A program made the translations under genes and the position numbers. Below are positions 21,026-41,011 of a stretch of DNA of 56,335 nucleotides, in pieces; the first letter of the stretch is position 1, and each line of letters opens with the position of its first letter. The stretch lies in assembly GCA_050177775.1 (NCBI GenBank), contig JBFXGS010000001.1, forward strand, positions 1 through 56,335, read 5' to 3'. The DNA is from Bacilli bacterium. GTDB taxonomy: Bacteria; Bacillota_I; Bacilli_A; ML615J-28; CAG-698. The notes below the pieces were generated by a model. That model did not search any database. It saw only the letters and a list, made by a program, of their open reading frames with translations, and was not told the DNA's origin.

Positions 21026-22492
21026 TTAATTTTCAATCGTTATTTTTATTTCGAAAGCACGATTCCAAGGGAAACAAGCGTTATAATTTAATGGGAACAA
21101 AGGGTCCGATAAAGCATGAAGATTTGTCTGCAACAATTGAATTAATTCTTTACTTGGTTTAAAGTCAAAGATATTGAGCAAGTTGGAATGCAAATACTGA
21201 TGAATTTTTGGTCTGACGATATCTTGGTAAAAGCAATCATCAATAATCCGTTCGAGTAAAAATTGATGACATAGTTCGTGGTTCGTAAAGTGTTTATCAC
21301 AAGTAATTAAAGCGGTTGCTAAAAGGCTACCAGTGGCATTTGATGCGGTATTCCACCCGCTGAACCCCTTCAATTTTAAGAAATCAATTTGTTTTAACAA
21401 TTGATAGCAAGCCCCGTTGGGAGCATTAATATCAAGTAAAAAAACAGGAATGTTATCTTTTAAGATGATATTTAATTTGTCAATAAACGCCAGAGTATCG
21501 GGATCAAAAGATATTTCGAGCGGTTTTTCTCGATCGCACACTTCCATTTTCTGCGAGTTGTTGCTTTGGAAAACAGCAAGAACAAAGGATGCGGAAGCAA
21601 AATCATCGGTTCTTTTCATGCTAAGAATGGACGTCATTTTTTGCAGGTTTTCGATATACGGGCGATCTTCAAACGGTAAGGGGTTTTTTAATAATTCTTC
21701 ATTGGGATGTAAAAGGAAATAAGTTAAATCTTGTTTTCTTATCTCGCGAATGATTTTGGCAAGTATAAAGCAGCTGGCTTCATCGGTTCCATTATAAAGC
21801 CAAGCTTTAGTCGCTAATTGACCTTCTTTTATTTTTGCTTCTAAAAGATCGTGTTCCAATGTTTGTAAACCATTGGGCATGGAGTCTTCTTGTAGGAGCA
21901 GCAAGAAATCAATTTTGTTTTGTTTTAATAAATCAAGGATGATTTTATTGACCTCATGTTTTTTAATCCGGGCAATTTCGTATGTTTTAAGAATATCAAT
22001 TGGTATTTTAGAACTAATTTCTTGAAACTTTTCATAATCAGAAGGGTTTTTATATCTGAGAAATTGTCCTTTATACCGACTAAATTCATTTATTAATTTC
22101 CAATATTGGGTTGTTTTCTCATCAAAAGTTGATATTGAAGTCCGAAGAACGGTATCAAAAGCGTAAATCTTTAATTTTGGATTAAGCGTTTTTAAACTTT
22201 TTAAAAACTTTATTTTATAATCAAGTTCTTCGACCGAATAATTGGCCTTTCGGCTTTGAATTAAACCACCGCTAATAAGACTGTCAATTGGACAAATCAA
22301 ATAATCTAAATGGTTTACTTCATTTTTAAGAAAGTTTTGAATAGCGGTGAAATCAAGTTTTGAGTGCAGAGTTCCAAGCAAGTTTTTTTCCATCGTTATT
22401 AGGTTGATGTTGGCCATTTTTGCAAGAGCAATGACCCAATCATAATTGCAAGGACGACTATCTAGCGGAATTAATCCAACATTTGTTTTCAT
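21026..22492 (-). CDS. DUF4127 family protein, paralogue 1 (divergent copy)
   Basis: 488 aa with no signal peptide. Shares IPLDSRPCNY, DSLISGGLIQSR, QEDS, SGWNTASNATGS, LLERIIDD and FPWNRAFEI with the two paralogues at 36063 and 39500. Confidence 0.65.
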   Translation of the reverse strand: MKTNVGLIPLDSRPCNYDWVIALAKMANINLITMEKNLLGTLHSKLDFTAIQNFLKNEVNHLDYLICPIDSLISGGLIQSRKANYSVEELDYKIKFLKSLKTLNPKLKIYAFDTVLRTSISTFDEKTTQYWKLINEFSRYKGQFLRYKNPSDYEKFQEISSKIPIDILKTYEIARIKKHEVNKIILDLLKQNKIDFLLLLQEDSMPNGLQTLEHDLLEAKIKEGQLATKAWLYNGTDEASCFILAKIIREIRKQDLTYFLLHPNEELLKNPLPFEDRPYIENLQKMTSILSMKRTDDFASASFVLAVFQSNNSQKMEVCDREKPLEISFDPDTLAFIDKLNIILKDNIPVFLLDINAPNGACYQLLKQIDFLKLKGFSGWNTASNATGSLLATALITCDKHFTNHELCHQFLLERIIDDCFYQDIVRPKIHQYLHSNLLNIFDFKPSKELIQLLQTNLHALSDPLFPLNYNACFPWNRAFEIKITIEN

Positions 22493-22564
22493 TATAAGCT
22501 CCTTTGTGCTCTAATTGTAACATACGAAAATCAAAAAGAGAATAAGAATATTTGCAAAAATCAA

Positions 22565-22593
22565 TTGACTAGACATTTAGTAAATGATATAAT
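22565..22593 (+). promoter_or_regulatory. Consensus sigma-A promoter of the first sugar-ABC operon, overlapping an operator-like motif
   Basis: TTGACT (22565-22570), 17 nt, TATAAT (22588-22593). The 11-mer TTGACTAGACA recurs at 41045. Confidence 0.75.
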
Positions 22594-22604
22594 CAAATGT
22601 GAGA

Positions 22605-22618
22605 TGTAAACGTTATCA
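22605..22618 (+). promoter_or_regulatory. Catabolite-responsive element (cre, CcpA site)
   Basis: TGTAAACGTTATCA matches the cre consensus TGWNANCGNTNWCA at every defined position. It lies just downstream of the -10 box. Confidence 0.7.
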
Positions 22619-22676
22619 GATCGCGTTTACTGTCCGTTAGGGAAACCTAATTATCTATAAAGAAAAGGAGAAAAAG

Positions 22677-24221
22677 ATGTTTAAGAAACTAATGATTGCT
22701 GTTTTAATGATCGTTTCTGTTTTCATGTTTGTCGGCTGTAATCAAGACGATGACATTGTTGAAAGTTTGGATTCCATTAAAATTTATGGCCCGTTTGACA
22801 CGTTCGACCCTGAAACCGATTATGTTCACCAATTAATAAAAGACATAACCGGTGTTGATGTTGATTATGACTTTTTACCACAGGATGGTGCTTCCGCAAA
22901 TACAAAATTGTATTTAGACATTGCCGGACAAGCACAATATCATCTTTTAAAACTTGCTCCTACTCAATTTGATCAATTACGTGCTGTTGGAGCACTGCTT
23001 GATATTACGGAATTACTAGAAGAATATGCCCCAAATATTACCAGTTCCGTAACTGAAGAAGTATGGAAAACAGCAACTTTTGATGGAAAAATCTATGGTG
23101 TTCCACAAAAGAATCCATCAAATAACATCAACAGTGCCTTATTCTTAAGAAAAGATATTTTTGTTGAGAATGATGTGGCATTGCCAACAACTTTAACTGA
23201 ATTTAAAGAAGCTTTAGTAGCTTTAAAAACAAAACTTGGTTCAGCATTTGTACCTTTCAGTGCAAGTTCTCATAATATTGAACCAATCAGAGGAGCGTTC
23301 GGGATTGTAACCGACTGGGTTCCACAAATTGATGGCAGTTTAAAATACTGGACGCAAACCGAAGCTTTCCAAGACTATGCCGATTATATGAAAGAATTAG
23401 TTGATTTGGGAGTTATGCAAGATGGTTACTTAACAATTCCTAATTATGGTGCAAATAGCCGTGCCGGATTGCAAAATGGGACTGTTGGTGTTACACTAGA
23501 TGCATGGTGGAGTGGTAATGGCATCATTAATGGCATCGCTGCTTCGGAAGGAAAAACTGAAGAATATGTCATCGAACACGCGTCAGAATATTTACATTTC
23601 ATTGATTCATTATTAGGCGATGTCAACTATGGTACTCCAGGAAAAGGCCAAGCCAAAATGGATTACTCCATTACATATTTCTATGCTATTCCAAAATACA
23701 TGGGAAATACCGCGATGGCGGTTATTAAATGGATGAATGAAAAAATGGATCCCGTTAATTTCAAACGTTTAACAATCGGTGAAGAAAACGTTCATCATAC
23801 CCTTGTTGACGGAAAATATTTCCCAATTTTAACGCCTGATGCCAATAATAAAGTTCCGTTTGATTCTTTCAATAAGGCCGATTATTTCTTAACAGGAATT
23901 CGTGAAGCTGATTACTCATTATATTGGCAATGCCGTGCCCGTAAGAATCCTCGTCAACAATTTGTTTGGGAAGGCATGAATACGGAAGCTCAAAAAACTG
24001 CGGTGGGAATTTATGACCGTGTTGGTTTAGCGCCTGGTTTCTTAATTTATGGAGCTAACAAAACAAAATTATCACAACTCACGACTGATTATTTGGTTAG
24101 TGTTATTACTGGTCAAGGAACACAAATGACACAAACGGAATTTAATGCGAAACTAGTTGCGGAAGCGCAATTAACAGAAAGCATTGCGGAAGTCAATGCT
24201 TGGTATGCGACACTTGAATAA
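22677..24221 (+). CDS. ABC transporter extracellular solute-binding lipoprotein (large LplA-type, CUT1)
   Basis: 514 aa. Signal peptide with lipobox FVGC. Size and context of large sugar SBPs, and followed by LplB/LplC-type permeases. Confidence 0.85.
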   Translation: MFKKLMIAVLMIVSVFMFVGCNQDDDIVESLDSIKIYGPFDTFDPETDYVHQLIKDITGVDVDYDFLPQDGASANTKLYLDIAGQAQYHLLKLAPTQFDQLRAVGALLDITELLEEYAPNITSSVTEEVWKTATFDGKIYGVPQKNPSNNINSALFLRKDIFVENDVALPTTLTEFKEALVALKTKLGSAFVPFSASSHNIEPIRGAFGIVTDWVPQIDGSLKYWTQTEAFQDYADYMKELVDLGVMQDGYLTIPNYGANSRAGLQNGTVGVTLDAWWSGNGIINGIAASEGKTEEYVIEHASEYLHFIDSLLGDVNYGTPGKGQAKMDYSITYFYAIPKYMGNTAMAVIKWMNEKMDPVNFKRLTIGEENVHHTLVDGKYFPILTPDANNKVPFDSFNKADYFLTGIREADYSLYWQCRARKNPRQQFVWEGMNTEAQKTAVGIYDRVGLAPGFLIYGANKTKLSQLTTDYLVSVITGQGTQMTQTEFNAKLVAEAQLTESIAEVNAWYATLE

Positions 24222-24246: not shown

Positions 24247-24885
24247 ATGTTAAACAGAGCACTTTTTGTTTTGGGGCGTTTATTTTTATTAAATGTCATA
24301 TATATTCTAACGGTTGCTTTTAGCCTAGGAATATTAGTTGCCCCGGCAACAAGTGCTCTTTTCTATTGTACAAAAGATTTACTAAACAAAGATACCAAGG
24401 AATATGGGTTTCTTAAGCAATATATGAATATCATAAAAACCAAATTTCGTTTTAGTTTTTGGTTCGGTTTAATGGCAGCCTTAATTCTTTATCTTTGTAT
24501 TGTTAATCTCGATAACGTGTTATTAATGAATTATCCTTCTTGGTTGTTAAAGACAATTGTCGTTTTCCAGTATATCATCATTGTTGAAACTTCTTTAATG
24601 ACCGTCATGGTTCTTTTTTTAAATGGTTTGTTTTTATTTTCTAAGTTTTCTGATTTGTTGAAAATGGCTTTTTTTATTCTTCATCGTCATTTTTTTACAA
24701 CCTTAATCATGGTTATTACCATTACCGTTTTAGTATATGTTTTTGTTTTTTATCTTAATGCCTTTTTGTTGCTGTTATTTTTTAGTGTCGTTTATCTTTG
24801 GATAAATTTATTATATTGGCCCATCGTTAATAAATACATTGTTAAGAAGGAGGAAAAACCAGAATATGAGCAAAAAGCCGAATAA
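24247..24885 (+). CDS. DUF624 (YesL-like) membrane protein
   Basis: 212 aa. N-terminal LNVIYILTVAFSLGILVAPATSALF pattern typical of YesL-family proteins in sugar ABC operons. Confidence 0.7.
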   Translation: MLNRALFVLGRLFLLNVIYILTVAFSLGILVAPATSALFYCTKDLLNKDTKEYGFLKQYMNIIKTKFRFSFWFGLMAALILYLCIVNLDNVLLMNYPSWLLKTIVVFQYIIIVETSLMTVMVLFLNGLFLFSKFSDLLKMAFFILHRHFFTTLIMVITITVLVYVFVFYLNAFLLLLFFSVVYLWINLLYWPIVNKYIVKKEEKPEYEQKAE

Positions 24886-25804
24886 GTTGTTAAAACATTT
24901 AAATCAGTACGGCGCTTTGTATTTTTTCTTAATCCCGGGATTAGTTCTAGTTGCCATTTTTAACTATGTTCCGATGGCCGGAATTGTCATTGCCTTTAAA
25001 AACTATGATATTTTTGCCGGAAGGACCCCAATCGAATCCATCATCAAAAGTGATTGGGTCGGGTTAGCTCATTTTAAAGAGTTGTTCAGTAATACCGATT
25101 TTACCAACGCCTTTGAAAACACATTAATAATCAGTACTTACAAAATTGTCTTTCTATTTCCGATTCCCATCATCTTAGCGATTATGATAACCGACATCAA
25201 AGCCTTGTGGTACAAAAAAGTGATTCAAACCGTCTTATATTTGCCGCACTTTTTATCATGGATTGTTGTTACCGCGTTATTTATTCAAATCCTTGGACCT
25301 TATGGAGTTATCAATAATTGGCTAAAAAGTTTGAACATTATCGAGCATTCCCTGGCTTTCTTTGGAAACAACGATATTTTCCGCGGTTTAATTGTCATCT
25401 CCGCGGGTTGGAAAGAAGTCGGTTGGAATGCGATTATATATATTGCTGCCATTACGGGGATTAATCCCCAACTATTTGAAGCGGCAAAGATTGATGGTGC
25501 CAGTAAAATGCAACAAGTGTTTTATATTACCATCCCGTCCATTGCCAATACGATTGTGATGTTGTTTATTTTAAGAATCGGCGCCATTTTGGATGCCGGA
25601 TTCGACCAAATTTTTAACATGTATTCCTATGTTGTTTATGATAAAGGTGATATTTTATCAACACTAGTTTACCGTTCAGGTATCGGACAACAAAATTATA
25701 GTTTTGCGACGGCGGTTGGTTTATTCAATTCCGTTGTTGCTTTAATTATGGTCCTTGGTGGAAACTATTTATCACGCAAAATCTTTAAGAAAGGACTGTG
25801 GTAA
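24866..25804 (+). CDS. Sugar ABC transporter permease (LplB-like)
   Basis: EAA loop EAAKIDGASKMQQVFYITIP and 6 TM helices. Start at ATG 24866 with an AAGGAGGA RBS. Confidence 0.9.
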   Translation: MSKKPNKLLKHLNQYGALYFFLIPGLVLVAIFNYVPMAGIVIAFKNYDIFAGRTPIESIIKSDWVGLAHFKELFSNTDFTNAFENTLIISTYKIVFLFPIPIILAIMITDIKALWYKKVIQTVLYLPHFLSWIVVTALFIQILGPYGVINNWLKSLNIIEHSLAFFGNNDIFRGLIVISAGWKEVGWNAIIYIAAITGINPQLFEAAKIDGASKMQQVFYITIPSIANTIVMLFILRIGAILDAGFDQIFNMYSYVVYDKGDILSTLVYRSGIGQQNYSFATAVGLFNSVVALIMVLGGNYLSRKIFKKGLW

Positions 25805-25805
25805 T

Positions 25806-26672
25806 ATGCTTGAATCAAGGAATGATAAGATTTTTAGTATTATTGTTTACATCATATTATCGATATTTGGATTATCGATAACCCTTCCGTTCCTTAATTT
25901 ATTAGCAACATCGCTTTCGGATCAAGTCGCGGTATCGAACGGGAGTGTGTCTTTTTGGCCCAAAAATTTTACATTAAGTGCTTATCAATTTGTTATTCAA
26001 AATGAACAATTTTGGAACGGACTAAAGACGACCGTCTTTGTGACTTTTGTCGGAACCGGCTTAGCGATGGTCGTAACCACACTTGTTGCTTATCCGTTAA
26101 GTCTTCCTAAATTCCGTGTTCGCAAAATCTTTTTAATTATATTCATCATCGTGATGCTCTTCAATGGCGGGTTAATTCCCACCTATTTACTAATCAATCA
26201 AATTGGACTGAGAAATAATCGTTGGGCGCTCATATTGCCATCTTTGATTTCAACTTATAACATGTTGTTAATTAAAAATTATTTTGAAACTCTTCCCGAA
26301 GCTCTTTATGAATCGGCTAAAATTGATGGAGCTTCCGAATTTCAAATCTTTTTAAAAATCACTTTGCCGCTATCTTTACCGACGCTTGCTACGGTTGCTT
26401 TATTCTATGCGGTGGGTTTTTGGAATGCCTATGTTAATGGGATGCTCTATATTTCGACGCCAAGCAAAATGCCTTTGCAAACTTATTTACAAACGCTCTT
26501 AAATATGGCTTATATTCCGGCTCATGAATTATCTCCGGAAGTCGCAGAAAGCCTTTCAACGGAATCGATTCGTGCCGCCACCATTTTCTCAGCCACCATT
26601 CCTATTTTGATTTTATATCCTTTCTTACAAAAATATTTTGTGAAAGGATTAGTGTTGGGTTCGGATAAATAA
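25806..26672 (+). CDS. Sugar ABC transporter permease (LplC-like)
   Basis: EAA loop ESAKIDGASEFQIFLKITLP. Start at ATG 25806, immediately after the upstream stop. Confidence 0.9.
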   Translation: MLESRNDKIFSIIVYIILSIFGLSITLPFLNLLATSLSDQVAVSNGSVSFWPKNFTLSAYQFVIQNEQFWNGLKTTVFVTFVGTGLAMVVTTLVAYPLSLPKFRVRKIFLIIFIIVMLFNGGLIPTYLLINQIGLRNNRWALILPSLISTYNMLLIKNYFETLPEALYESAKIDGASEFQIFLKITLPLSLPTLATVALFYAVGFWNAYVNGMLYISTPSKMPLQTYLQTLLNMAYIPAHELSPEVAESLSTESIRAATIFSATIPILILYPFLQKYFVKGLVLGSDK

Positions 26673-27097
26673 TGAAAGATTCTTTGAAAATCTTTTTATT
26701 AAGGTCGTGGGTCATTGGAGTTGTGGTCGTGGTTGGGCATTTTATGATGAAATTACAGCACTTGTCGATTGGTCTTATTTTAGGAGTAATTAATACCTTT
26801 TTAGTAGACTTGGTTGTTTTAACGATTTTAAAAGGAAATCAAACCCACTTTCCGAAAGGTTGGAAATTGTTTTTACGAACAATTCTTAATATTGTGACCG
26901 CCATTGGTCTTAGTTTAATTATTCGCTTAATAGATTTAGCACTTTTAAATAAAGGTTTAATTACCATGCCCATTGAAACTTTTCGTTTTATTGCTTATTA
27001 CCAAGTAATGTATTATTTTGGTTTCTTTGTTTATAAAAAAATCTTGGTCATAATAGAGAGGAAAAAATATGAGTCGAATACTAACAAGCCTTCATAA
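26672..27097 (+). CDS. Small hypothetical membrane protein (about 4 TM)
   Basis: 141 aa, hydrophobic, with no recognisable motif. Its start overlaps the permease stop by 1 nt. Confidence 0.5.
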   Translation: MKDSLKIFLLRSWVIGVVVVVGHFMMKLQHLSIGLILGVINTFLVDLVVLTILKGNQTHFPKGWKLFLRTILNIVTAIGLSLIIRLIDLALLNKGLITMPIETFRFIAYYQVMYYFGFFVYKKILVIIERKKYESNTNKPS

Positions 27098-27761
27098 TAA
27101 GCCCATGACGTTAGTTGTCAGTTTACCCGAAAACACTTATGAGATGGCCAAAGCCGCATGGGAAGCGCAAGCAGATGCCATCAAAGTTCACATTAATCTT
27201 TTTCATAATGCCAGCCTTGTCAAGTTTGGTTCTTTAGAAGAACAACGACCGGTTTTAGAAAAAATAATTCACGATTCACCGGTTCCGGTCGGAATCGTTG
27301 CCGGCCAAGACACAAAAACAAGCGAAGCAGTCATTGAAGAACTTGTGAAAATGGGATTTGATTTTATATCTTTGTATGGTCATCATATGCCAGTCTCGTT
27401 AGTTAATCGTCGAGATGTTTCTAATTTATTTGCCATTGATTATAGTTATTCTTTAGAAGAAGTTAAAACCATTACCAATTCTTTTATTGCGGATATTTTA
27501 GAATTATCCATTCTACCTCATGAAGAATATGGACAAAGGTTAAATGCCCGCGATTTGAGTAGATACTTAGCGTTTTCACAAATATCAAGCATTCCAACGC
27601 TTCTTCCTTCACAGCGTTTACTTTTGCCTAGTGATGTAAACATGATTGCAAAATGCGGGGTGAAGGCGATTATGATTGGCGCAATCGTTTTTGGTCATGA
27701 TTTGGATCAAATGTCCAAACAAATAATGCAGTTTAAACAAGCCATCAATCAATTAAATTAA
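27069..27761 (+). CDS. Hypothetical cytoplasmic protein, possibly a (beta/alpha)8 phosphate-binding barrel
   Basis: 230 aa. Alternating beta-alpha pattern (LVVSLP, ADAIKVH, PVGIVAGQ, DFISLYG, ILELSIL, IPTLLPSQ, GVKAIMIGAIVFG), reminiscent of NanE/ribulose-phosphate-binding barrels. AGAGGAAAA RBS. Confidence 0.45.
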   Translation: MSRILTSLHNKPMTLVVSLPENTYEMAKAAWEAQADAIKVHINLFHNASLVKFGSLEEQRPVLEKIIHDSPVPVGIVAGQDTKTSEAVIEELVKMGFDFISLYGHHMPVSLVNRRDVSNLFAIDYSYSLEEVKTITNSFIADILELSILPHEEYGQRLNARDLSRYLAFSQISSIPTLLPSQRLLLPSDVNMIAKCGVKAIMIGAIVFGHDLDQMSKQIMQFKQAINQLN

Positions 27762-32798: not shown

Positions 32799-32802
32799 CA
32801 AT

Positions 32803-32836: not shown

Positions 32837-32855
32837 TAAAAAAAGGAAGAGAAAT

Positions 32856-35090
32856 ATGAGGAAAATTTTTATGGCTTTTTTGTTAGCAACGCTTTTATCC
32901 GGGGTTAGTATTAATGCCGAAACCACTGCCATTGTTGATGATTTTTTAAACGGGAAGGATGTGGTCCGCTATGAAAACTATTTGGTTTATTATAGTTTCA
33001 ATTCGACTTTAAAATCACCTGCAAACCAATGGGGATATGAAATTGCGGTTAGCAGTAATCACTTTGTGATTGATTGTGACACAAACGCAACCATGGAAAC
33101 AGGAGGATATATCATATCCGGGCATGGGACGAAAAAAACGACGTTGCAAAATGTCAAAGTTGGTGATCAAGTTAGTATCAATTGGGAAACTAAACAAATC
33201 GTGATTACGCGCGATAGTTTGAAAAGCCCGCAATTTTTAGCTCATCGTTTTAAAACAACCTCGGAAAACTATTACAATCAAGCAATCGAGGGCGGATATG
33301 ACTTTAACAGAACGCTTGTTGAACATATGCTTAATTTAAATGATAATGATTTACTGCAGATTGATGCCATCGTTGAAAAAGAAAGTCCCACAAGCAATGA
33401 AATTGATTTGGTTAAGATACTGGCTGATGGCATTGATGCTAGGATGCTATCCATCAAGTTTTTAACTTCTTTCTCTTCAACTACGGAAATTAGAGCTTTA
33501 TGGCATCGACCCAATGCGGCAGGCATTAAAGAGAACAACTTAGAAAATTTAAAGGCGTTTGTGCAAGAAGTAAAGGACCTTGGGTTTAATACCATTTTTG
33601 TGGAGACGCTTTGGAATGGATATGTCAGTTATCGGTCGGATATCATTGCTACGCATCCGCAAGTTGCTAATTTTACCTATGGTGAAGAATATAAAAACGA
33701 TTATATTGCGGCTTTAATTGGTGAAAGTCAAAAATTAGGCATTGATGTTCATGCTTGGTGCCACACCTTTAATGCGGGGAATGCAACCTACAAAGCCACT
33801 TCCATTAAAGATGAATGGTTATTGGAAGATTATCAAGGACTTACTTTACATCCAAATAGTTATGGAGGCAGTTATTATTTAGATCCATCTAATCCGGAGG
33901 TACTGACTTACTTGACAAGCGTTTTTTCGGAAATGGTTGAAAAATACGATTTTGCGGGAATTCAATTAGATTACATACGTTATTATGATAATAATTATTT
34001 ACAAACGCCGATTCGTGATAGTGGTTACGGATTACTCCCGGAAACACAATTTAAAACAGAATATTCATTAACCGGTGATGTTCGAACCCTCATTAAACAA
34101 AACACCTATTTGGAATTATGGAATGAATGGCGCCAAAACAATGTAACCAATGCTGTTCGAACTTTTTCTTCGGCTTTAAGAAGGCTTAATCCGCAGATCA
34201 TCATATCCGCGGATGTTGTTTCGAGTATCAATTATGCGAAAAGTACATATATGCAAGACTGGAAAACATGGGTTGAAAAAGGATACATTGATTTATTATG
34301 CCCAATGATTTATACCGGAAGTGCCGAAACTATTGAAAAAGACTCGTTAGCGATAATGAATCAAATAAAAAACCTTTCGTTTTTAGCTTCAGGGATTGCT
34401 CCAATTTATTATGGGCATTCGTTAGAAATCAATCATGATGAATTCGTCGCAACAAAAAGCGGCGATGGTTTAGCCTTTTTTGCAAGCCAAAACATCGTTG
34501 GATTAAGTGATGTTACTCAATCAATTAAAACAGGGGTTTTTAGAAACACGGCAGTATCTCCGCTTCGAGAAACCAAATTGGTTATCACAGAAGCTTTGTT
34601 GAACTTGAAAAGCTATGTTGAAAAGGCGATGGCGAATGAACCGCAACAATTAATGTTTTTAAACCATGTCGAAGAAATGATGACAATGAAGTGTGATAAC
34701 CCGGCTGATTATCAAGCCCTTATGGAAAAAATGATTTTTGTAAGAACGATAACTCCGTACATCTCTTCTTCTTCAATGCGAGAAATATTCTCACAAGAAT
34801 TAACTCAATTAATTCATATTCTTGATGTGAAAATAAGTCGAGAAATGATTGCTTATGGTTTTTATAACCCTGATGATGAAGAAAGGCCCAATCCGGATCA
34901 ATTTGATTACCCAATCGATAATCCAGAACCCGAACCTGAACCGAAACCCGAGCCGGAACCAGAACCGGAACCCGAGCCTGAACCAGAGCCGGATGAAGAA
35001 AAAGGTTGTTTTAAAGTGTTTTCGTTTCCTTCTGTTTTGCTTCTTGGATTAATTTTTATCTTTATTCGAAAAAAAGAAAGAGGTTATTAA
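32856..35090 (+). CDS. Secreted, C-terminally anchored GHL10 (DUF187/YngK-like) glycoside-hydrolase-like protein
   Basis: Signal peptide MRKIFMAFLLATLLSGVSINA. GHL10-like core RALWHRPNAAGIKENNLENLKAFVQEVKDLGFNTIFVETLWNGYVSY ... GIQLDYIRY. C-terminal PE repeat, KGC, TM helix and RKKERGY tail. Start trimmed to ATG 32856. Confidence 0.75.
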   Translation: MRKIFMAFLLATLLSGVSINAETTAIVDDFLNGKDVVRYENYLVYYSFNSTLKSPANQWGYEIAVSSNHFVIDCDTNATMETGGYIISGHGTKKTTLQNVKVGDQVSINWETKQIVITRDSLKSPQFLAHRFKTTSENYYNQAIEGGYDFNRTLVEHMLNLNDNDLLQIDAIVEKESPTSNEIDLVKILADGIDARMLSIKFLTSFSSTTEIRALWHRPNAAGIKENNLENLKAFVQEVKDLGFNTIFVETLWNGYVSYRSDIIATHPQVANFTYGEEYKNDYIAALIGESQKLGIDVHAWCHTFNAGNATYKATSIKDEWLLEDYQGLTLHPNSYGGSYYLDPSNPEVLTYLTSVFSEMVEKYDFAGIQLDYIRYYDNNYLQTPIRDSGYGLLPETQFKTEYSLTGDVRTLIKQNTYLELWNEWRQNNVTNAVRTFSSALRRLNPQIIISADVVSSINYAKSTYMQDWKTWVEKGYIDLLCPMIYTGSAETIEKDSLAIMNQIKNLSFLASGIAPIYYGHSLEINHDEFVATKSGDGLAFFASQNIVGLSDVTQSIKTGVFRNTAVSPLRETKLVITEALLNLKSYVEKAMANEPQQLMFLNHVEEMMTMKCDNPADYQALMEKMIFVRTITPYISSSSMREIFSQELTQLIHILDVKISREMIAYGFYNPDDEERPNPDQFDYPIDNPEPEPEPKPEPEPEPEPEPEPEPDEEKGCFKVFSFPSVLLLGLIFIFIRKKERGY
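34924..34992 (+). repeat. Imperfect GAACCN hexanucleotide repeat encoding a (Pro-Glu)n linker
   Basis: Encodes PEPEPEPKPEPEPEPEPEPEPEP. A similar tract lies at 39367-39420. Confidence 0.85.
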
Positions 35091-36052
35091 TGAGCTTAAC
35101 AATAAAAGTAATACCGACTTTAGACAGTCAATATGTCGATAGTCGCAAGTTTCAAAACGCCAAAATTTATTATGGAAGTATCGACAATGAAATAAAAGCT
35201 CCCATTTCACCAAAGTGTTTTTTAGGAGCTTGGTACCGAAAAGTTTTTTCATCCTTTGACTATTGGCTTGGAATAGAAGGAGTTATAAAACTGGGAGAAT
35301 TTATTCCTGACAAAGCCCGTTTTAATCTTGATGGAAAAGGCCGATTTATGGATAATCCTTCAATATATATGGGTGGAAAGAGCCAAAAAGAAAGCGATGC
35401 TGGCCTAAACTTAAATCTTTCTTATCTTTCGTTTGATACCAAAGATGATTTGCAATTATCTTCGCCTAAAGTGGCTTACCGTCCTTTTTGGCGTTACATT
35501 TACAATATGGCAACGGATGAAAGCGGAAATGTGGATCGTCATGAAGTTAATTCATGGAACGTTCATAATCCCCGTCATTTGGGAAATTATTATTTTCCGG
35601 GTGATGTAATTAAAATGAGCGTATTTAGTCCGTTGAGGGACTATTTACAATTGCGAATTGATGTCATCGAACCGACCAACAATCCTAAATATGTGAAAAT
35701 ACGCAATAATTACAATTTGGAAAACAATTTACCAACATCATTTTTAAGTCCGCTGTTCTTTTCCAAAGGACATGGTTACGAAAAAGCAGAATTTAAAAGA
35801 GTGAACTCCATTGACCAATATGGCAACGAAGGATTTGTTGCCCAAAATACTAATGCTGAAGTTACGGAGGCTCTGTGGCAAGAAGTGTATTTATATCGGG
35901 AGATTAATGGGGAGATTTGTAAAATACCTTTTTTACAAAATCGCCAAACATCCATGATTTGTCCAAATACAGATGCGATAACCGTAAGGAATCATCCTTT
36001 TGACCCAACTGGGGAAACCATACAAATTCATCCCGGGAAAATTAATCTTTAG
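35090..36052 (+). CDS. Orphan 320-aa cytoplasmic protein, paralogue B
   Basis: Same length and colinear blocks as 27775-28737 (CFLGAWYRKVFSSFD, WLGIEGVI, ARFNLDGKGR, SIYMGGKS, AYRPFWR, FPGDV..MSV, SKGHGY..AEFKRVN, RQTSMICPN). TAATG overlap with the upstream stop. Confidence 0.6.
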   Translation: MSLTIKVIPTLDSQYVDSRKFQNAKIYYGSIDNEIKAPISPKCFLGAWYRKVFSSFDYWLGIEGVIKLGEFIPDKARFNLDGKGRFMDNPSIYMGGKSQKESDAGLNLNLSYLSFDTKDDLQLSSPKVAYRPFWRYIYNMATDESGNVDRHEVNSWNVHNPRHLGNYYFPGDVIKMSVFSPLRDYLQLRIDVIEPTNNPKYVKIRNNYNLENNLPTSFLSPLFFSKGHGYEKAEFKRVNSIDQYGNEGFVAQNTNAEVTEALWQEVYLYREINGEICKIPFLQNRQTSMICPNTDAITVRNHPFDPTGETIQIHPGKINL

Positions 36053-36062
36053 GAGAAAAGGC

Positions 36063-37565
36063 ATGAAAAAAATTTTATATATTCCACTTGATGAACGCCC
36101 TTGTAATTATGATTTTCCGAAAAGTATTTTTACAAGTTCCTCATACTCCGTCATTGTTCCACCCATTAGTATCATGGGTGATAAAAAAAATCCGGCTGAC
36201 CATGAAGCTTTAGAAACCTTTTTACTTGAAGAATCAAAGGAAGCGGATGGTTTAGTTATTTCTCTTGACACATTAATTTATGGTGGAATTGTGCCTTCGA
36301 GGCTCCATTATTTGGAAGCCTCTGTTTTGAAAGAAAGGTTATTGTTTTTAAAGAAAATCAAGCTAATTCACCCCCATTTACCCGTTTTTGCTTTTCAACT
36401 TATTATGCGTTGTCCTCAAAACAATTCGAGCGATGAAGAACCGGAATACTATAAACATGCAGGTCGGAATATTTATCTGCAAGGTTATTTTCAAAACAAA
36501 CAACAACTTGGCCTTCTCAGCGTTGATGAAGAAAAAATTTGGAAGACCATCACCATTGAGGATGCTTATTTAAATGATTTTCTAAGTCGAAGAGCTTTGA
36601 ATAAGCAAATTAACATTTTTGCGCTTGATTTGTTAGAACAAGGGACAATTGATTTTTTGGTTGTTCCTCAAGATGATGCCAGTGAATTTGGTTACACGGC
36701 AATGGATCAAGTTGATATTAGATCGGTAATTCGCCAAAAGCAACTAATGCTTAAAGCTTATATGTATCCTGGGGCCGATGAAGTTGGATGTATTTTAATG
36801 AGTCGGATGATTAACCATTTAGAAAATAAAAAGCCGGCCGTGTTTGTGAAATACCCATCCCCGACCACCCCGATGGTAATTCCTTGTTTAGAAGATCGCT
36901 ATGTCGATGTAACCATCAAATACCATATTGCTTGTGCCGGAGGAATTACGGTTCCTTCGCTGAGTGATGCCGATATTGTTTTGCTTCCCTTTTTAGGGGC
37001 AACCAAAATGATACCACACCCGAATAATGAAGCCAGTTTAGATGTTGATGTTATGTGCAATTTTGTGGAAATGATGGAGTTTGCGGAATATGCCATTAAA
37101 AAAGGCTATCCGGTTGCTATTGCTGATTTAGTTTATTTAAATGGTGGTTCTTTAGATATCTTAAATTTTCTTGAAAGCAAAGGATTAACCATGAGGGTTG
37201 CCGCTTATGCGGGATGGAATACCTCAAGTAATGCTTTAGGAACAGCCATTGCTCAAGCTATGCAGTTTTGGCATCAAGGATCTACCAAACTTCACCAAAC
37301 ATTTCTCATCAAGAGGTATGTCGAAGACGTGGGGTATTGTGGAGTAGTGCGAGAGAATGTTACCAAACAACTGGCAAAATATGGTATGGATTACTTTAAT
37401 GTGAAAGAAAAAAGCGGGCTTGCCGCCGATCTTGTCAAACAAGAACTAAACTTGTTCATTGAAGAATATCTTCCAAGCATTTCTAACCGATTCGCTTTGG
37501 AGGATGTTAATCTGCCATGGCGTCGAATGTTTGAAGTTGATTTCCAAGTCGTTCTAAAGGATTAA
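36063..37565 (+). CDS. DUF4127 family protein, paralogue 2
   Basis: 500 aa from MKKILYIPLDERPCNY. AGGAGAAAAGG RBS. The track ORF starts upstream inside the previous gene. Confidence 0.65.
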   Translation: MKKILYIPLDERPCNYDFPKSIFTSSSYSVIVPPISIMGDKKNPADHEALETFLLEESKEADGLVISLDTLIYGGIVPSRLHYLEASVLKERLLFLKKIKLIHPHLPVFAFQLIMRCPQNNSSDEEPEYYKHAGRNIYLQGYFQNKQQLGLLSVDEEKIWKTITIEDAYLNDFLSRRALNKQINIFALDLLEQGTIDFLVVPQDDASEFGYTAMDQVDIRSVIRQKQLMLKAYMYPGADEVGCILMSRMINHLENKKPAVFVKYPSPTTPMVIPCLEDRYVDVTIKYHIACAGGITVPSLSDADIVLLPFLGATKMIPHPNNEASLDVDVMCNFVEMMEFAEYAIKKGYPVAIADLVYLNGGSLDILNFLESKGLTMRVAAYAGWNTSSNALGTAIAQAMQFWHQGSTKLHQTFLIKRYVEDVGYCGVVRENVTKQLAKYGMDYFNVKEKSGLAADLVKQELNLFIEEYLPSISNRFALEDVNLPWRRMFEVDFQVVLKD

Positions 37566-37566: not shown

Positions 37567-39507
37567 ATGAAAAAGTTAACGTTTATTCTTTGCTTTATTT
37601 TTGTTGTTTTGTTCTTTGTTTTTTTTAGAGTTAACACTTTTGCTCACTCGATGAGTGTTGAGAAAAATGACACGATTAAAAGTGGGACAGTTATACCAGG
37701 AATAACTTACGAAAGCTTTTCGGGAATGACAATAAATGATGCCCAAACCACCAGCAATCAAAGAATTAGTTGGGTGAAAAAATCCGCAAGTGCTCATGCG
37801 AAAATAGTTTCCTGGAGTAAACTAAAAGAAAACGGCATTGAAGGCGCGAACCTATTAAATCTGGCAAGTGATTTTGAGAGTAAAAATCCAGGATGGCGAG
37901 TGCTTGCCGGAATTAATGGGGACTATTACGACCCGACGACTAAAACGCCCGTGAATGCCCTTGTACAACAAGGTGATGTTGTAAAAGGAACAAACTTTAC
38001 ATTATCGAGATATTTTTCAATTGGCTTTAACGATGATAGCACTGGCTATGTAACATCGAAAACCAATGTTTTAGAAACAAAGTACGCTTTAACGATTTAT
38101 GATGAATCAAGGACTCGGGTTATTCTGGAAGTGGAACTTCAAGGATTAAACACGTATCCTAACAGCAAACAGACAAGTGTTTATTATAATAGTCAATATC
38201 CTTATCAAATTCCTAATGCCCGTTATTTTCGTGTAAATGATTTAGATTATGCCATCAATTACGGGTCTTATTTATTTAAAGGAAAAGTCAATGAAGAAGT
38301 AAATAATACCGAAACCCATTTAGGACAATTAGTGATCGCATCTTTAGATGAACGTGTTCAATATTTACTTGAAAAAAATCCATATATCCGGGTTCAAAAG
38401 CATTTAAAAGATGTCAATAACGGTTATGACAATATTATTGGAGTCGGAAGTCAACCTCTAAAAGATGGGACAATCTTAGAATTTTCCGAAATAAATGACC
38501 AAAATCTTGATTTCGCAAAACTTCGTGCACCGCGTTCTTCAATTGGCTTTACCCATGACGGCAGTTTTGTGATGGCTACCATGGATGGAAGGCAGTCGTT
38601 AATGGCCGGAGTTGACTTACGAGAAGAAGCCATGGTTATGGCATCTTTGGGGTGCCATCAAGCCTTTAATTTAGATGGTGGGGGATCAACCCAGTTAATT
38701 GTTCGAGAAAATGATCAATTGGTGATGTTAAACTCGCCTTCCGAAATCTATCGGAATAATGCCAATGGGGTTTTAATAGTGGAACCCGATGTTGATATTG
38801 AGGTTGACATTTCCCATTTATCTTTTTCATCGCTTGACTTACAATACTCTTTGGTGCCGCAAACCGGGGTGAATATTATAAGCCATTCTTTATATGCTAA
38901 TAATGTTCCGATAACAACGAGCCCAGAAACGATTACCATTGATTCTTTAATTTATTCGGGAATTAATTATTTGTCTTTGGTTGTGAAATACGAAAAACAA
39001 GGATTTATTTATGAACGATGTTTGTGGGTTGAACGAATAAATCTTGCTAATTATGGACTTGTTGAACCTATTGTTAAGGAAAAGCCCCATGATTTTACGG
39101 TTGTATTTGAAAAAGATGAAACTATCAAGGGCTTTACCGCGGTTATTAATTTTGATGATCCCGATAACACAATCACAAAACTTTATTTAGCATATGAAGG
39201 TAATGAAGAAATCGCCTTAAAAAGAATCAACGGGTATGAAGTCGATTTTTATAATGTTGAAAATAATTCATCTTTTTCTTTTTCGATTATTTATTATTAT
39301 CGAATTAACACGATAAATGCGGTATCGGAAACTTATGAAACTTTGTTTCCTTATGTTTATCAAGCGGAAACAGAGCCCGAGCCTGAACCTGAACCTGAAC
39401 CAAAACCAGAACCGGAAACTAAAGGTTGTTTATCTTGGGAAACACTATTACCTATTTCGCTTTTGATGTTAGGTTTTGGATGGTTTAAGAGGAGGAAACA
39501 TGAATAG
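37567..39507 (+). CDS. Secreted, C-terminally anchored phosphodiester glycosidase (NAGPA/DUF2233 domain) protein
   Basis: Signal peptide. Motifs GINGDYYD and RSSIGFTHDGSFVMATMDGRQ...GVDLREEAMVMASLGCHQAFNLDGGGSTQLIV, typical of the NAGPA domain. Also a C-terminal beta-rich region, PE repeat, KGC, TM helix and KRRKHE tail. Confidence 0.8.
   Translation: MKKLTFILCFIFVVLFFVFFRVNTFAHSMSVEKNDTIKSGTVIPGITYESFSGMTINDAQTTSNQRISWVKKSASAHAKIVSWSKLKENGIEGANLLNLASDFESKNPGWRVLAGINGDYYDPTTKTPVNALVQQGDVVKGTNFTLSRYFSIGFNDDSTGYVTSKTNVLETKYALTIYDESRTRVILEVELQGLNTYPNSKQTSVYYNSQYPYQIPNARYFRVNDLDYAINYGSYLFKGKVNEEVNNTETHLGQLVIASLDERVQYLLEKNPYIRVQKHLKDVNNGYDNIIGVGSQPLKDGTILEFSEINDQNLDFAKLRAPRSSIGFTHDGSFVMATMDGRQSLMAGVDLREEAMVMASLGCHQAFNLDGGGSTQLIVRENDQLVMLNSPSEIYRNNANGVLIVEPDVDIEVDISHLSFSSLDLQYSLVPQTGVNIISHSLYANNVPITTSPETITIDSLIYSGINYLSLVVKYEKQGFIYERCLWVERINLANYGLVEPIVKEKPHDFTVVFEKDETIKGFTAVINFDDPDNTITKLYLAYEGNEEIALKRINGYEVDFYNVENNSSFSFSIIYYYRINTINAVSETYETLFPYVYQAETEPEPEPEPEPKPEPETKGCLSWETLLPISLLMLGFGWFKRRKHE
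39367..39420 (+). repeat. Imperfect GAACCN hexanucleotide repeat encoding a (Pro-Glu)n linker
   Basis: Encodes ETEPEPEPEPEPKPEPET, immediately before AAAGGTTGT (KGC). Confidence 0.85.
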
Positions 39508-41011
39508 AATCATTTATGTTCCCCTTGATGAACGTCCCTGTAATTATCGATTTCCTTTTCAAATATTTAATCAAAAAAACACGGAAATAATTACTTGTCC
39601 AGAACATTTGATGGGTTATAAAAAGCGACCGGCCCAAATCAACCAACTTAATGAATGGTTAATGATCAATACTAAGCATGCTTATGGTTTGGTTGTTGCC
39701 CTAGATACACTTATTTATGGAGGAATTGTACCCTCACGACTCCATAATTTGCCTTTAGATGTGTTAATAAGTCGATTAACTATTTTAAGAAGTTTGAAAA
39801 AACAAAATCCTAATTTGATTATATATGGATTTTCCTTAATTATGCGATGCCCCGAGTATAATTCTGCCGATGAAGAACCGGAATACTTTCAAAACCACGG
39901 AAAAAACATTCACCTTTTGGGTTATTTGTCCCACATGAAAGAATTAAACATTCTTAGTAAATCCGATCAAGAAAAACTTGATAATATCCAAATCCCCAAG
40001 GAATACATCGATGATTTTTCACATCGTCGTTATGTTAACCAACAAATTAATATCGCTGCATTAGAGCTTGTGAAAGAAGAAATCATTACCTTTTTCACAA
40101 TTCCTCAAGATGATTCTTCAAAGTATGGTTGGACGGCCAAAGATCAAATCAAGATTAGAGAGGTTATAAAAAAACATAAACTGTTTAAGAAAGTTTTTAT
40201 GTATCCTGGTGCGGATGAAGCTGGTTGTGTTTTACTCAGTCGAATGGTTTGTCTTAACAATCATCTTCAACCGAAAGTATATATTAAATACCCCGGTCCC
40301 ACTTGTTCGAAAATAATCCCCTCCATCGAAGATCGCTATTTGGATACGATGGTAAAATACCACATTATTGCTTGTGGCGGGATAGTAGTTGATGCTTTAA
40401 AGGAATGTGATGCGGTTTTATTGATCAATGCTCCTGCAGATTACATGCGCTCCTCATTTAATAAAGAAGAACCCGGCCGGGGACTGGAAGTTCAGAGAAA
40501 CCTTGTTGAAGCCATCGAGTTTATTGAATACGTGGGCCAAAAACAAAAAGCCATTATTATTGGCGATATTACTTATGGAAATGGCAGTGATTTAGAAATT
40601 TATCATTATTTATCTTTAAAGAAAATGCTTTTTAAACTGGCGGGTTTTGGAGGATGGAACACAGCTTCCAACAGTATCGGGCAAGCCATCGCCATGGGTT
40701 TTTCGTGCTTGCTAAACGGGTTTACCAAACAACATTTAGCTTTTTTAATCAGCCGCTATGTTGAAGATATCGGTTATTGTGGTTATGTTCGTCAAACAAT
40801 TATGAAGGACTTTTTGCCTAGACATCCTCAGTTAAACTATTTCGATGTAAAAAGCAAAGCCGGAATCGTCGCAACAGAAGTTAAGGATCAATTAAAGTTG
40901 TTTGTACAAACCAAAATGCCTGATTTATGGCCCCACATTATTATTAAGAAAGTTGAATTACCTTGGAAACGCATGTACGAAATCGATTTAGAGGTTGAAT
41001 ATCGACCCTAA
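39500..41011 (+). CDS. DUF4127 family protein, paralogue 3
   Basis: 503 aa from MNRIIYVPLDERPCNY. AGGAGGA RBS. 8-nt overlap with the upstream gene. Roughly 45-50 percent identical by eye to paralogue 2. Confidence 0.65.
   Translation: MNRIIYVPLDERPCNYRFPFQIFNQKNTEIITCPEHLMGYKKRPAQINQLNEWLMINTKHAYGLVVALDTLIYGGIVPSRLHNLPLDVLISRLTILRSLKKQNPNLIIYGFSLIMRCPEYNSADEEPEYFQNHGKNIHLLGYLSHMKELNILSKSDQEKLDNIQIPKEYIDDFSHRRYVNQQINIAALELVKEEIITFFTIPQDDSSKYGWTAKDQIKIREVIKKHKLFKKVFMYPGADEAGCVLLSRMVCLNNHLQPKVYIKYPGPTCSKIIPSIEDRYLDTMVKYHIIACGGIVVDALKECDAVLLINAPADYMRSSFNKEEPGRGLEVQRNLVEAIEFIEYVGQKQKAIIIGDITYGNGSDLEIYHYLSLKKMLFKLAGFGGWNTASNSIGQAIAMGFSCLLNGFTKQHLAFLISRYVEDIGYCGYVRQTIMKDFLPRHPQLNYFDVKSKAGIVATEVKDQLKLFVQTKMPDLWPHIIIKKVELPWKRMYEIDLEVEYRP

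Follow-up and report, generated by a model that had tools for sequence, protein, structure and literature searches.

A conserved gene cluster of Acholeplasma-like bacteria that combines DUF4127, a Pfam-less 320-residue family and a NAGPA-type glycosidase, with a candidate role in glycopolymer utilization

The window analyzed here is a complete contig of 56,335 bp (GC content about 36%) from a metagenome-assembled genome (MAG) labeled "Bacilli bacterium" at NCBI. Between 21026 and about 54216 it holds a gene cluster that combines three paralogs of the DUF4127 family, two copies of a 320-residue protein without a Pfam family, a surface phosphodiester glycosidase of the NAGPA type, a surface GHL10 enzyme, a large lipoprotein and two ATP-binding cassette (ABC) importers. 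The cluster is real, conserved and, apparently, undescribed, and occurs mainly in Acholeplasma-like bacteria. Our analysis supports a locus of two catabolite-repressed operons for glycan utilization.

A sequence-only reading of the same DNA had proposed a glycopolymer-scavenging locus at 21026–41011. Our open reading frame (ORF) map places the genes, one for one, at the coordinates which that reading gave, and every family that it assigned was recovered in the Pfam search. Its boundary at 41011 does not hold. The cluster runs on through a 1793-residue surface lipoprotein and a second ABC importer, both overlooked before, to about 54216. We assign this downstream block to the same system because it directly follows the NAGPA gene or a 320-residue-protein gene in other genomes.

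Genes and regulatory regions of the cluster

DUF4127-1 (21026–22492; PF13552, E = 1.3e-100) is divergently transcribed from the reverse strand; all other genes and regulatory regions described here lie on the forward strand. It is 25% identical to DUF4127-3 (39476–41011, E = 1.8e-144), and DUF4127-2 lies at 36000–37565 (E = 1.2e-142). The three paralogs score 337.7, 476.3 and 482.4 bits, respectively, against a family cut-off of 27. The TTG starts of the last two are probably wrong: an internal ATG at about 36060 is the probable start of DUF4127-2, and DUF4127-3 is 100% identical to the NCBI protein P0121 of 503 residues, whose annotated start is at 39500.

The 320-residue protein A (27775–28737), which appears cytoplasmic, and protein B (35090–36052) are paralogs with 62% identity and belong to a Pfam-less beta-sandwich family. 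The description of these two as orphans in the sequence-only reading stands, as they gave no Pfam, NCBIfam or PDB sequence match. The 141- and 230-residue products of the first operon likewise had zero Pfam and NCBIfam matches, and PDB sequence searches with the 320-residue protein, DUF4127 and the 230-residue protein returned nothing usable.

The NAGPA-type surface protein (37567–39507; PF09992, E = 6.8e-28, 98.4 bits against 25) has an N-terminal signal or anchor, a DGGGS motif, a PEPE linker and a C-terminal transmembrane (TM) anchor. Its segment NLDGGGST aligns with the corresponding motif in the DUF2233 structure 3ohg and in 6ozd, 6pku and 6pky, with vertebrate NAGPA included in the comparison, which places it in the family. 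According to a 2026 structural study (PMC13474241), phosphodiester glycosidases share DGGGS as their invariant motif for catalysis and phosphate binding, and it contains the catalytic aspartate. The protein may, as predicted from sequence, cleave N-acetylhexosamine (HexNAc)-alpha-1-phosphodiesters at the glycosidic bond. With vertebrate NAGPA and the bacterial DUF2233 domain (structures 3ohg and 6pku) it shares the Pfam domain, DGGGS, a PR(S/T)xIG segment and an extracytoplasmic location. The similarity is weak, however, and does not extend beyond the C-terminal part of the catalytic domain; its best stretch, to vertebrate NAGPA, covers about 80 residues at E = 2e-4. The architecture also differs, with an N-terminal region of about 270 residues and a C-terminal region of about 190 residues without a family, the PEPE linker and the TM anchor. 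In the literature found, no member of the bacterial NAGPA/DUF2233 group has a defined physiological substrate.

The second surface enzyme (32787–35090) is a GHL10 glycosidase-like protein (PF02638, E = 5e-34, 118 bits against 27.9) with a signal peptide, whose probable start is the methionine of MRKIF, a PEPE linker and a C-terminal anchor of the form KGC-TM-RKK. The domain and its closest solved relative, Cwp19 (5oq2, E = 8e-10), establish GHL10 membership. As Cwp19 is reported to be a peptidoglycan lytic transglycosylase (PMC6016235), the window protein may, by analogy, have this activity. It shares the GHL10 TIM barrel and surface display with Cwp19 of Clostridioides difficile (PMC6016235, PMC5765458), but the two are distant, with other flanking domains and with a C-terminal TM segment in place of the CWB2 repeats of Cwp19; moreover, the window enzyme sits in a catabolic operon while Cwp19 is an autolysin.

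The C-termini of GHL10 (34970–35090) and NAGPA (39400–39507) are built alike: a (PE)n linker leads into K-G-C, and a hydrophobic helix with an RKK-type tail follows. Nine close relatives keep the GC motif of these C-termini among the loci fetched from other genomes (L004, L005, L008, L012, L014, L025, L027, L033 and L039). The KGC-TM-basic tail may be a lineage-specific signal for sorting or lipidation; a universal sorting signal was rejected, as distant orthologs have a plain TM anchor.

The remainder of the first operon begins with importer 1 of the CUT1 type. Its lipoprotein substrate-binding protein (SBP; 22677–24221) has an FVGC lipobox and matches SBP_bac_1/SBP_bac_8 in Pfam, and it is followed by DUF624, two ABC permeases (BPD_transp_1 twice) and a 141-residue membrane protein (24247–27097). 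The last of these is syntenic in L004, L005 and L007–L009. The GH84 beta-N-acetylglucosaminidase (28752–30455; PF07555, E = 8.5e-85, 285 bits) has no signal peptide and would be cytoplasmic. Its NAGidase domain and the adjacent aspartates in FLDDID place it in GH84, in which this DD pair is catalytic. It scores 214 against a cut-off of 1000 for the NCBIfam equivalog NF041654 and is not an ortholog of that specific enzyme. The following gene encodes the N-acetylmannosamine (ManNAc)-6-phosphate 2-epimerase NanE (30465–31133; PF04131, E = 3.4e-59, 199.7 bits against a cut-off of 27), in which the motif GLIKRNY is conserved in an alignment of five NanE sequences. The lysine of this motif has a catalytic role.

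The 230-residue cytoplasmic protein p230 (27069–27761), previously called barrel-like, resembles NanE, a likeness that the sequence-only reading had missed. Its hhalign alignment to NanE is collinear over the full length but weak (E = 3e-4, probability 39%). It is not a NanE by family criteria: it has no Pfam match, and the lysine column of GLIKR reads GIVAG. It carries its own invariant K39, H41 and H46, and one homolog matches PF04131. All 147 members of the p230 family are annotated as hypothetical, and in the fetched loci the gene always adjoins a gene of the DUF4127-1 type. We regard p230 as a divergent phosphate-binding TIM barrel that is predicted to be NanE-like in fold only and to have a different chemistry. 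The operon also encodes a GNAT acetyltransferase fused to a GntR/UTRA regulator of the HutC/NagR type (31121–32773; Acetyltransf_1, GntR and UTRA in Pfam). Matches to this fusion are two adjacent genes beside p230 and DUF4127-1 in L044, L062, L064 and L065, where the part matched by each gene is not distinguished.

The downstream block opens with the 1793-residue surface lipoprotein (41104–46485), which has an LTAC lipobox, three N-terminal Ig-like domains, a large center without a family and three C-terminal repeats of about 185 residues. Its homologs directly follow NAGPA, or in L036 the 320-residue-protein gene, in L010–L017, L025, L027, L033, L035, L036, L039 and L078. The protein is a candidate component for binding or depolymerizing a polymer. 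In the C-terminal third (about 44900–46480) the first two tandem repeats are almost identical in DNA and carry identical hairpins at 45218 and 45773, 555 bp apart; the repeats look like repeated binding modules. Importer 2 (46554–54216) comprises by Pfam a DUF624 protein, an SBP of 973 residues, two permeases, an NHL/TPR protein and a Yip1 membrane protein. The DUF624, SBP and permease set spans 46554–52046, and the last two genes reach 54216. The importer is syntenic 3' of the big lipoprotein in L025, L027, L035, L036, L058 and L078. Its SBP (47209–50130) has the SBP domain at residues of about 590–880, behind an N-terminal extension of about 590 residues without a Pfam match.

The regulatory region of operon 1 (22564–22618) contains the operator-like sequence aTTGACTAGACAtt over the -35 element, the promoter and an exact catabolite-responsive element (cre). 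The promoter, TTGACT-17-TATAAT with an upstream TG (22565–22593), has 11 of 12 consensus matches, and the cre TGTAAACGTTATCA lies 12 bp 3' of it at 22605–22618 as the sole exact cre in the window. The near-consensus promoter and the cre were already part of the sequence-only reading and are confirmed. A second promoter of equal quality, again TTGACT-17-TATAAT (41045–41073), lies inside the 93-bp gap after DUF4127-3. In this regulatory region of operon 2 (41023–41073) the cre-like TGAAAACCTTTTCA is followed by cTTGACTAGACAag over the -35 element.

The identical 11-mer TTGACTAGACA overlies the -35 element of both promoters (22565–22575 and 41045–41055), a shared operator-like motif that the sequence-only reading had missed. 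Its CTAGAC core, set in an imperfect palindrome, is typical of HutC/GntR operators. Exact copies occur on the coding strand in 16 of the 85 fetched loci, and most are intergenic at an equivalent place, 5' of the SBP gene or of the big-lipoprotein gene. The operon 1 position is kept in L004, L005 and L008; the motif stands 5' of the operon 2 ortholog in L010, L011, L013, L014, L016, L017, L033, L077 and L078, and recurs in L025 and L027. We propose TTGACTAGACA as a candidate GntR/HutC-type operator of the local GntR/UTRA regulator, a putative pairing that would define a regulon.

Some expected functions are absent. A panel search with a query per family found no homolog of ROK kinase, NagB, PIG-L, GH20 or PF12831 in the window. 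The amidohydrolase family has no match among the scanned window ORFs of at least 120 residues, although no dedicated NagA query was used. The sequence-only reading, which had found no kinase, NagA or NagB, is thus upheld for ROK and NagB, and for NagA to the extent of that family search. Neither a DHDPS-family (NanA) nor a ROK match was found in the scanned window ORFs, so that NanE alone represents the canonical nan set of NanA, NanK and NanE. A peptidoglycan-recycling set (NagZ, AmiE/AmpD, MurQ and AnmK/MurK) is not present either, as SIS (MurQ), GH3 and kinase domains are absent among the scanned window ORFs of at least 120 residues. The missing steps are probably encoded elsewhere in the genome and not supplied by the uncharacterized families, because related loci do carry ROK kinases, NagB and PIG-L.

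Conservation and genomic neighborhoods

All ORFs of the fetched loci were searched with the window proteins and with neighbors seen elsewhere. The counts cover 51 species-level loci of at least 12 kb each, centered on a 320-residue-protein gene. DUF4127 is present in 33/51 of these loci, a PF12831 flavoprotein in 23/51, NAGPA and GNAT/GntR in 20/51 each, NanE in 16/51, GHL10 and the big lipoprotein in 15/51 each, p230 in 12/51 and GH84 in 11/51. The families that had been grouped from this one stretch of DNA therefore do co-occur in other genomes. The gene order is kept in dozens of species, which is beyond chance.

L004, L005 and L008 preserve in full synteny both halves of the locus upstream of 41011, unit A (DUF4127-1 and operon 1 up to the regulator) and unit B (GHL10 to DUF4127-3). 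Unit B recurs in Izemoplasmatales as a set of GHL10, 320-residue protein, GH84, DUF4127, NAGPA and big lipoprotein, and a minimal block of 320-residue protein, NAGPA, big lipoprotein, DUF624 and long SBP is found in Anaeroplasma bactoclasticum and gut MAGs. Besides A. bactoclasticum, members of Acholeplasma, Haploplasma and Izemoplasmatales are among the carriers, and Acholeplasma laidlawii has DUF4127, the flavoprotein, the 320-residue-protein gene and NanE; the closest homologs of the window cluster come from "Tenericutes", Acholeplasmataceae and Izemoplasmatales MAGs. The DUF4127 subfamilies keep their places: that of DUF4127-1 adjoins p230 in L019, L044, L046, L057, L062, L064 and L065, and that of DUF4127-2 lies between the 320-residue-protein/GH84 genes and NAGPA in L010–L017, L033 and L077.

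Two further neighbors recur beside the cluster and are absent from the window. The PF12831 FAD-dependent oxidoreductase (L001 8442–10004, L003 8439–10001, L079 14083–15663, L084 7607–8995 and many other loci), one of the most frequent neighbors, is often translationally coupled to the 320-residue-protein gene or to DUF4127, and our literature search on PF12831 found nothing relevant. In Acholeplasma and Izemoplasmatales, a gene pair encodes an unannotated protein of 452–466 residues and a PIG-L family deacetylase (L001 12520–14739, L077 5324–7586; also L013, L016 and L021).

Outside these lineages, DUF4127 lies in other contexts. The Paenibacillus neighborhood contains RpiR, an SLH-domain GHL10, Metallophos, an SBP, two permeases, DUF4127, NanE, ROK and a PF12831 flavoprotein. 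A Priestia plasmid has an esterase, DUF4127, ROK, ManA, a phosphotransferase system (PTS), NanE and RpiR, and plasmids of Carnobacterium and Enterococcus faecalis have RpiR, NanE, a HAD phosphatase, DUF4127 and a PTS EIIC. These clusters are nan-type operons without NanA, with DUF4127 in its place. Other neighborhoods come without NanE, namely DUF4127, ROK, RpiR and a NAGPA-like protein in a Mycoplasmatota genome, and NagZ, an SBP, a GH20b-domain protein, permeases, a flavoprotein and DUF4127 on a Deinococcus plasmid. A Subdoligranulum plasmid carries an SBP, permeases, DUF4127, an N-acetyltransferase and a PfkB kinase.

Because DUF4127 stands in the NanA position of nan-like operons, it probably yields, by analogy, a sugar that is handled next by a kinase or PTS and by NanE: ManNAc, mannosamine (ManN) or ManNAc-6-phosphate. 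The recurring acetyltransferases suggest a free amino sugar in the pathway. Given the multiple paralogs per locus and the HexNAc-ase neighbors, we favor a glycosidase-like reaction for DUF4127, with a nonulosonic-acid lyase as the main alternative.

Structural models of the two uncharacterized families

The 320-residue family is small. It counts 470 relatives in 5.8 billion proteins and 240 clusters at 50% identity (1.84 billion representatives), and the relatives that are named at all are "hypothetical", except for one annotated as an immunoglobulin-like domain protein. Its main carriers among the GTDB species genomes are Acholeplasmatales, Izemoplasmatales, Haloplasmatales and Anaeroplasma, joined by some Clostridia and by distant members in Acidobacteriota and Bacteroidota. 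A Pfam scan of all 53 aligned members at E up to 5 gave scattered noise only. The structural model (predicted local distance difference test, pLDDT, 95.4; predicted template modeling score, pTM, 0.92) is an all-beta sandwich of two sheets. In a Foldseek search of the PDB, glutamic peptidases rank first: 8xai, YncM 4hfs, scytalidoglutamic peptidase and neprosin (entries 8xai, 4hfs, 1s2b, 2ifr and 7zva), along with the glycopeptide-bound 8pn5. These matches have E values of 1e-7 to 1e-4, with TM-scores of up to 0.70 by target (TMt) and about 0.44 by query (TMq). GH16 and PL-type jelly rolls rank next.

R77, D88, E101, D103, K236, D242 and Q243 are among the residues invariant in 29/29 diverse family members, and K51, R131, R135, R237, E247 and R270 are among those conserved in at least 27/29. 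E101 and D103 form an E-x-D on a single strand, which recalls the ExDxE strand of GH16. Compared with the Gln/Glu dyad of the G1 peptidases (eqolisins), to which the fold is a partial match, Q243 is invariant (29/29) and Q187 occurs in closer relatives only, while E101 and E247 are invariant or nearly so. The two-sheet sandwich is shared with glutamic peptidases (eqolisin/G1, neprosin) and GH16 jelly rolls, but there is no sequence similarity to them, the core alone superposes, and the 320-residue family has both cytoplasmic and lipoprotein forms. The residue pattern is that of a predicted cleft enzyme with an anionic ligand and not that of a kinase or phosphatase; a beta-sandwich of the hydrolase, lyase or peptidase type likewise argues against a kinase or phosphatase role, two of the four activities (phosphatase, kinase, deacetylase and lyase) that the sequence-only reading had suggested as candidates for DUF4127 and the 320-residue proteins.

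Lipoprotein forms of about 450 residues, which combine an Ig-like domain with the 320-residue domain, are common and are the sole obvious exported enzyme of the Acholeplasma clusters. In the Bacteroidota-type protein P0271 the domain is fused to NAGPA and has a type IX secretion system (T9SS) tail. On the Bacteroidota-type metagenome contig L088 (919–12095), a fusion of the 320-residue domain and NAGPA lies beside a second NAGPA with a T9SS tail, a GH92 alpha-mannosidase and a DUF5107/TPR protein. Acholeplasma clusters that have the 320-residue-protein gene where Paenibacillus has ROK had raised the idea of a stand-in for the missing kinase. We rejected it, as the fold is an all-beta sandwich, some family members are exported lipoproteins and one is fused to NAGPA.

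DUF4127 is equally well modeled. The AlphaFold2 model of DUF4127-3 (pLDDT 95.4, pTM 0.94) has no real neighbor in the PDB by Foldseek (best E = 1.6e-3, TM-score about 0.3 or less), and the profile of 51 sequences has no match among PDB sequences. Thirty positions are invariant in this alignment and kept by all three window paralogs; they include the cysteine of DERPCN, seven arginines and seven acidic residues. The many invariant basic (Arg/Lys) and acidic residues of both DUF4127 and the 320-residue family would fit enzymes that act on phosphorylated or carboxylated sugars. Assignments of DUF4127 as a ribokinase-like kinase or a xylose-isomerase-like lyase were dropped, as they rested solely on noise-level Foldseek matches (TIM barrels, pyridoxal kinase). 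A viral protein of 693 residues, A0A346TNQ6 in BFVD, is a structural homolog of DUF4127 (Foldseek TMq 0.79, 22% identity, E = 6e-30). We found no paper that mentions DUF4127 or PF13552/IPR025394. Hidden Markov model and structure searches thus place neither DUF4127 nor the 320-residue family in a characterized pathway.

A proposed pathway and its alternatives

The cre beside a near-consensus promoter, the two SBP/permease sets, the GntR/UTRA regulator and NanE indicate a catabolic locus that imports and degrades its substrate. This logic, like the co-occurrence of the families, bears out the sequence-only reading in part. We believe, at roughly even odds (a probability of about 0.5), that the locus harvests an anionic HexNAc glycopolymer, probably linked by sugar-1-phosphodiesters, and that the likeliest source is a wall teichoic acid or secondary wall polymer of other bacteria. 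A phosphodiester-linked HexNAc/ManNAc polymer fits the intact DGGGS, the link between DUF4127 and NanE, and the invariant Arg/Lys residues of both uncharacterized families. Most plausibly, the target may include the unit that joins wall polymers to peptidoglycan, ManNAc-beta1,4-GlcNAc-alpha1-P-6-MurNAc (GlcNAc, N-acetylglucosamine; P, phosphate; MurNAc, N-acetylmuramic acid). We favor wall polymers because this anchor has the GlcNAc-alpha-1-phosphodiester chemistry of the one characterized NAGPA substrate and, in addition, ManNAc. The classical members of the Acholeplasma-like carrier groups are wall-less and could therefore display wall-lytic enzymes safely; A. bactoclasticum is bacteriolytic. 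Walled Firmicutes, for their part, carry a minimal DUF4127-NanE module, as would be expected for recycling of their own walls. The gene content, conserved synteny, folds, motifs and promoter elements are what the analysis shows directly; the substrate, the pairing of regulator and operator, and every catalytic role given to DUF4127, the 320-residue family, p230 or the big lipoprotein are what we infer here.

In the pathway that we propose, the 1793-residue lipoprotein would bind the polymer at the cell surface, where the membrane-anchored GHL10 would cut a glycan backbone and NAGPA would hydrolyze HexNAc-alpha-1-phosphodiester bonds at the glycosidic C-O bond. The fragments would enter through the two SBP-dependent ABC importers. 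In the cytoplasm, GH84 would take off beta-GlcNAc, and the 320-residue beta-sandwich proteins and the three DUF4127 paralogs would carry out the remaining depolymerization, with DUF4127, directly upstream of NanE in the pathway, releasing ManNAc, ManN or ManNAc-6-phosphate. The GNAT domain would re-acetylate a free amino sugar, and NanE together with the NanE-like p230 would turn manno-configured HexNAc-6-phosphate into GlcNAc-6-phosphate. The GntR/UTRA domain would sense an amino-sugar phosphate and bind TTGACTAGACA at both promoters, with CcpA acting at the cre.

As a type of system, the Gram-positive-style polysaccharide utilization locus is already known, and SBP lipoproteins, permease pairs with DUF624, anchored surface enzymes, a cytoplasmic GH84, GntR/UTRA and cre are shared with it. 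The content is not known. In contrast to such loci, most of the predicted catalysis lies in families without a known activity (DUF4127 three times, the 320-residue protein twice, p230 and the center of the 1793-residue lipoprotein), and the known carbohydrate-active enzymes give no readable substrate. The new content is one Pfam-less family, one DUF without a structural relative, a NanE-like orphan, a bacterial NAGPA in a catabolic context and a conserved operator. The mechanism is hypothetical and the system-level logic conventional.

Several observations weigh against a phosphodiester-linked wall polymer as the substrate. Specificity is not uniform within GHL10, one member of which is reported to be active on starch (PMC9967864). 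NanE occurs in just 16 of the 51 loci, so ManNAc may be a branch and not the core of the pathway. The nearest structural neighbors of the 320-residue fold are peptidases and not glycosidases, at modest TM-scores (TMq 0.44). The GH92 gene beside the fusion of the 320-residue domain and NAGPA hints at a mannan, an N-glycan phosphodiester or a mannose-phosphate glycan as the target in that Bacteroidota-type lineage. The wall linkage unit is a low-abundance target. Finally, no kinase, NagA or NagB is encoded in the window (NagA without its own query), which leaves the route to central metabolism incomplete here.

The wall-polymer proposal can be carried further, to a stronger claim that we consider doubtful. 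DUF4127 and the 320-residue family would be two new glycan-active families. Together with NAGPA, they would break down the linkage unit ManNAc-beta1,4-GlcNAc-alpha1-P-6-MurNAc, near-universal in Gram-positive wall polymers, as well as related polymers of ManNAc/GlcNAc-phosphate, and this would be the first catabolic route for such substrates. NAGPA would then be the long-sought physiological "uncoupling" enzyme for GlcNAc-1-P-MurNAc, and DUF4127 the first beta-N-acetylmannosaminidase or 6-phospho-beta-N-acetylmannosaminidase; the enzyme name N-acetylmannosaminidase was found in no paper of the literature searched. Wall-less Acholeplasma-like bacteria would feed on Gram-positive necromass, and walled Firmicutes would recycle their own linkage units by means of DUF4127 and NanE.

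The alternative that survives best, and which we still judge unlikely, is a variant pathway for sialic or other nonulosonic acids with DUF4127 as a non-homologous replacement of NanA. The substrate of DUF4127 would be a 2-keto-3-deoxy nonulosonic acid or, where a PTS does the import, the 9-phosphate of that acid, and the products would be pyruvate and ManNAc or ManNAc-6-phosphate. Esterases would strip O-acetyl groups, a NanOx-like PF12831 enzyme would act on anhydro or unsaturated forms, and a surface 320-residue domain would be the releasing enzyme. The operons in which DUF4127 takes the place of NanA, with NanE, ROK (NanK-like), RpiR (NanR-like) and SBP/permeases or PTS but without NanA, would be explained in this way, as would neighboring esterases of the GDSL, GxDLY and CE7 types; the many invariant arginines of DUF4127 could bind a carboxylate. 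The nan operons of Firmicutes (NanA, NanK, NanE, an RpiR-type NanR, and SatABC or PTS) have NanE in common with the window, and the related operons add ROK, RpiR and SBP/permeases or PTS around DUF4127. Unlike the canonical nan operons, the locus has no NanA and no sialidase, DUF4127 (often with the PF12831 flavoprotein) occupies the NanA position, and NanK and RpiR are missing from the window as well. Neither the window nor the loci with neighbors annotated by Pfam or by their records contain a GH33 sialidase, and two or three DUF4127 paralogs per locus (the window, L012, L014, L074 and L076) would be unusual for a lyase. That NAGPA, GHL10, GH84, GH20 and NagZ are so tightly associated points instead to HexNAc glycosides and phosphodiesters. 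In our judgment, sialic acid is also not obviously plentiful in the source environments that the names of MAGs and isolates suggest (digester, sediment, rumen).

Foraging on eukaryotic or fungal glycoconjugates is, in our view, quite improbable. The substrates would be GlcNAc-1-P-6-Man on high-mannose N-glycans, fungal phosphomannan or O-GlcNAc glycopeptides, with GH84 in the role of an O-GlcNAcase, NAGPA in that of an uncovering enzyme and the 320-residue protein in that of a glutamic-type glycopeptidase. O-GlcNAcases are indeed found among GH84 enzymes, the 320-residue fold best matches glutamic peptidases including the glycopeptide-bound 8pn5, the GH92 alpha-mannosidase adjoins the fusion of the 320-residue domain and NAGPA, and ManA lies in the Priestia cluster. 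Furthermore, GlcNAc-1-P-6-Man is the sole characterized NAGPA substrate (PMC13474241). Against this, neither the window nor the annotated Acholeplasma-like loci contain a mannosidase or another N-glycan enzyme, and the coupling to NanE would be left unexplained as ManNAc is not a part of these glycans. GH84 and the 320-residue proteins are cytoplasmic here, and the nearest characterized relative of GHL10 acts on peptidoglycan.

Remodeling or recycling of the cell's own surface glycan (capsule, lipoglycan or wall polymer) is plausible for the walled Paenibacillus, Priestia and Enterococcus with DUF4127 and NanE, and in Paenibacillus the SLH-domain GHL10 is anchored to its own wall. Such remodeling or recycling is very improbable for the window, in which Pfam scans found no glycosyltransferase, flippase or polymerase gene. 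Nutrient uptake is suggested by the control through cre, by two SBP importers of high capacity and by a large lipoprotein that is adhesin-like, and the classical members of the carrier genera Acholeplasma and Anaeroplasma have no wall to recycle.

If utilization of a phosphodiester-linked wall polymer is correct, three uncharacterized families would gain a testable biochemical context, among them DUF4127 with its thousands of members, confident fold and no solved relative. It would give a first physiological role to bacterial NAGPA/DUF2233, which is now known only by analogy with the lysosomal uncovering enzyme. It would also bear on two questions: what breaks down teichoic-acid-type and secondary wall polymers together with their anchoring phosphodiester, and what supplies NanE with ManNAc in the many genomes that encode this enzyme without a sialic-acid lyase. 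The cultivable carriers Acholeplasma laidlawii, Paenibacillus and E. faecalis with its plasmids make the hypothesis directly testable. For the organisms themselves, it would explain how wall-less Acholeplasma- and Izemoplasma-like bacteria of digesters, sediments and guts live off bacterial necromass.

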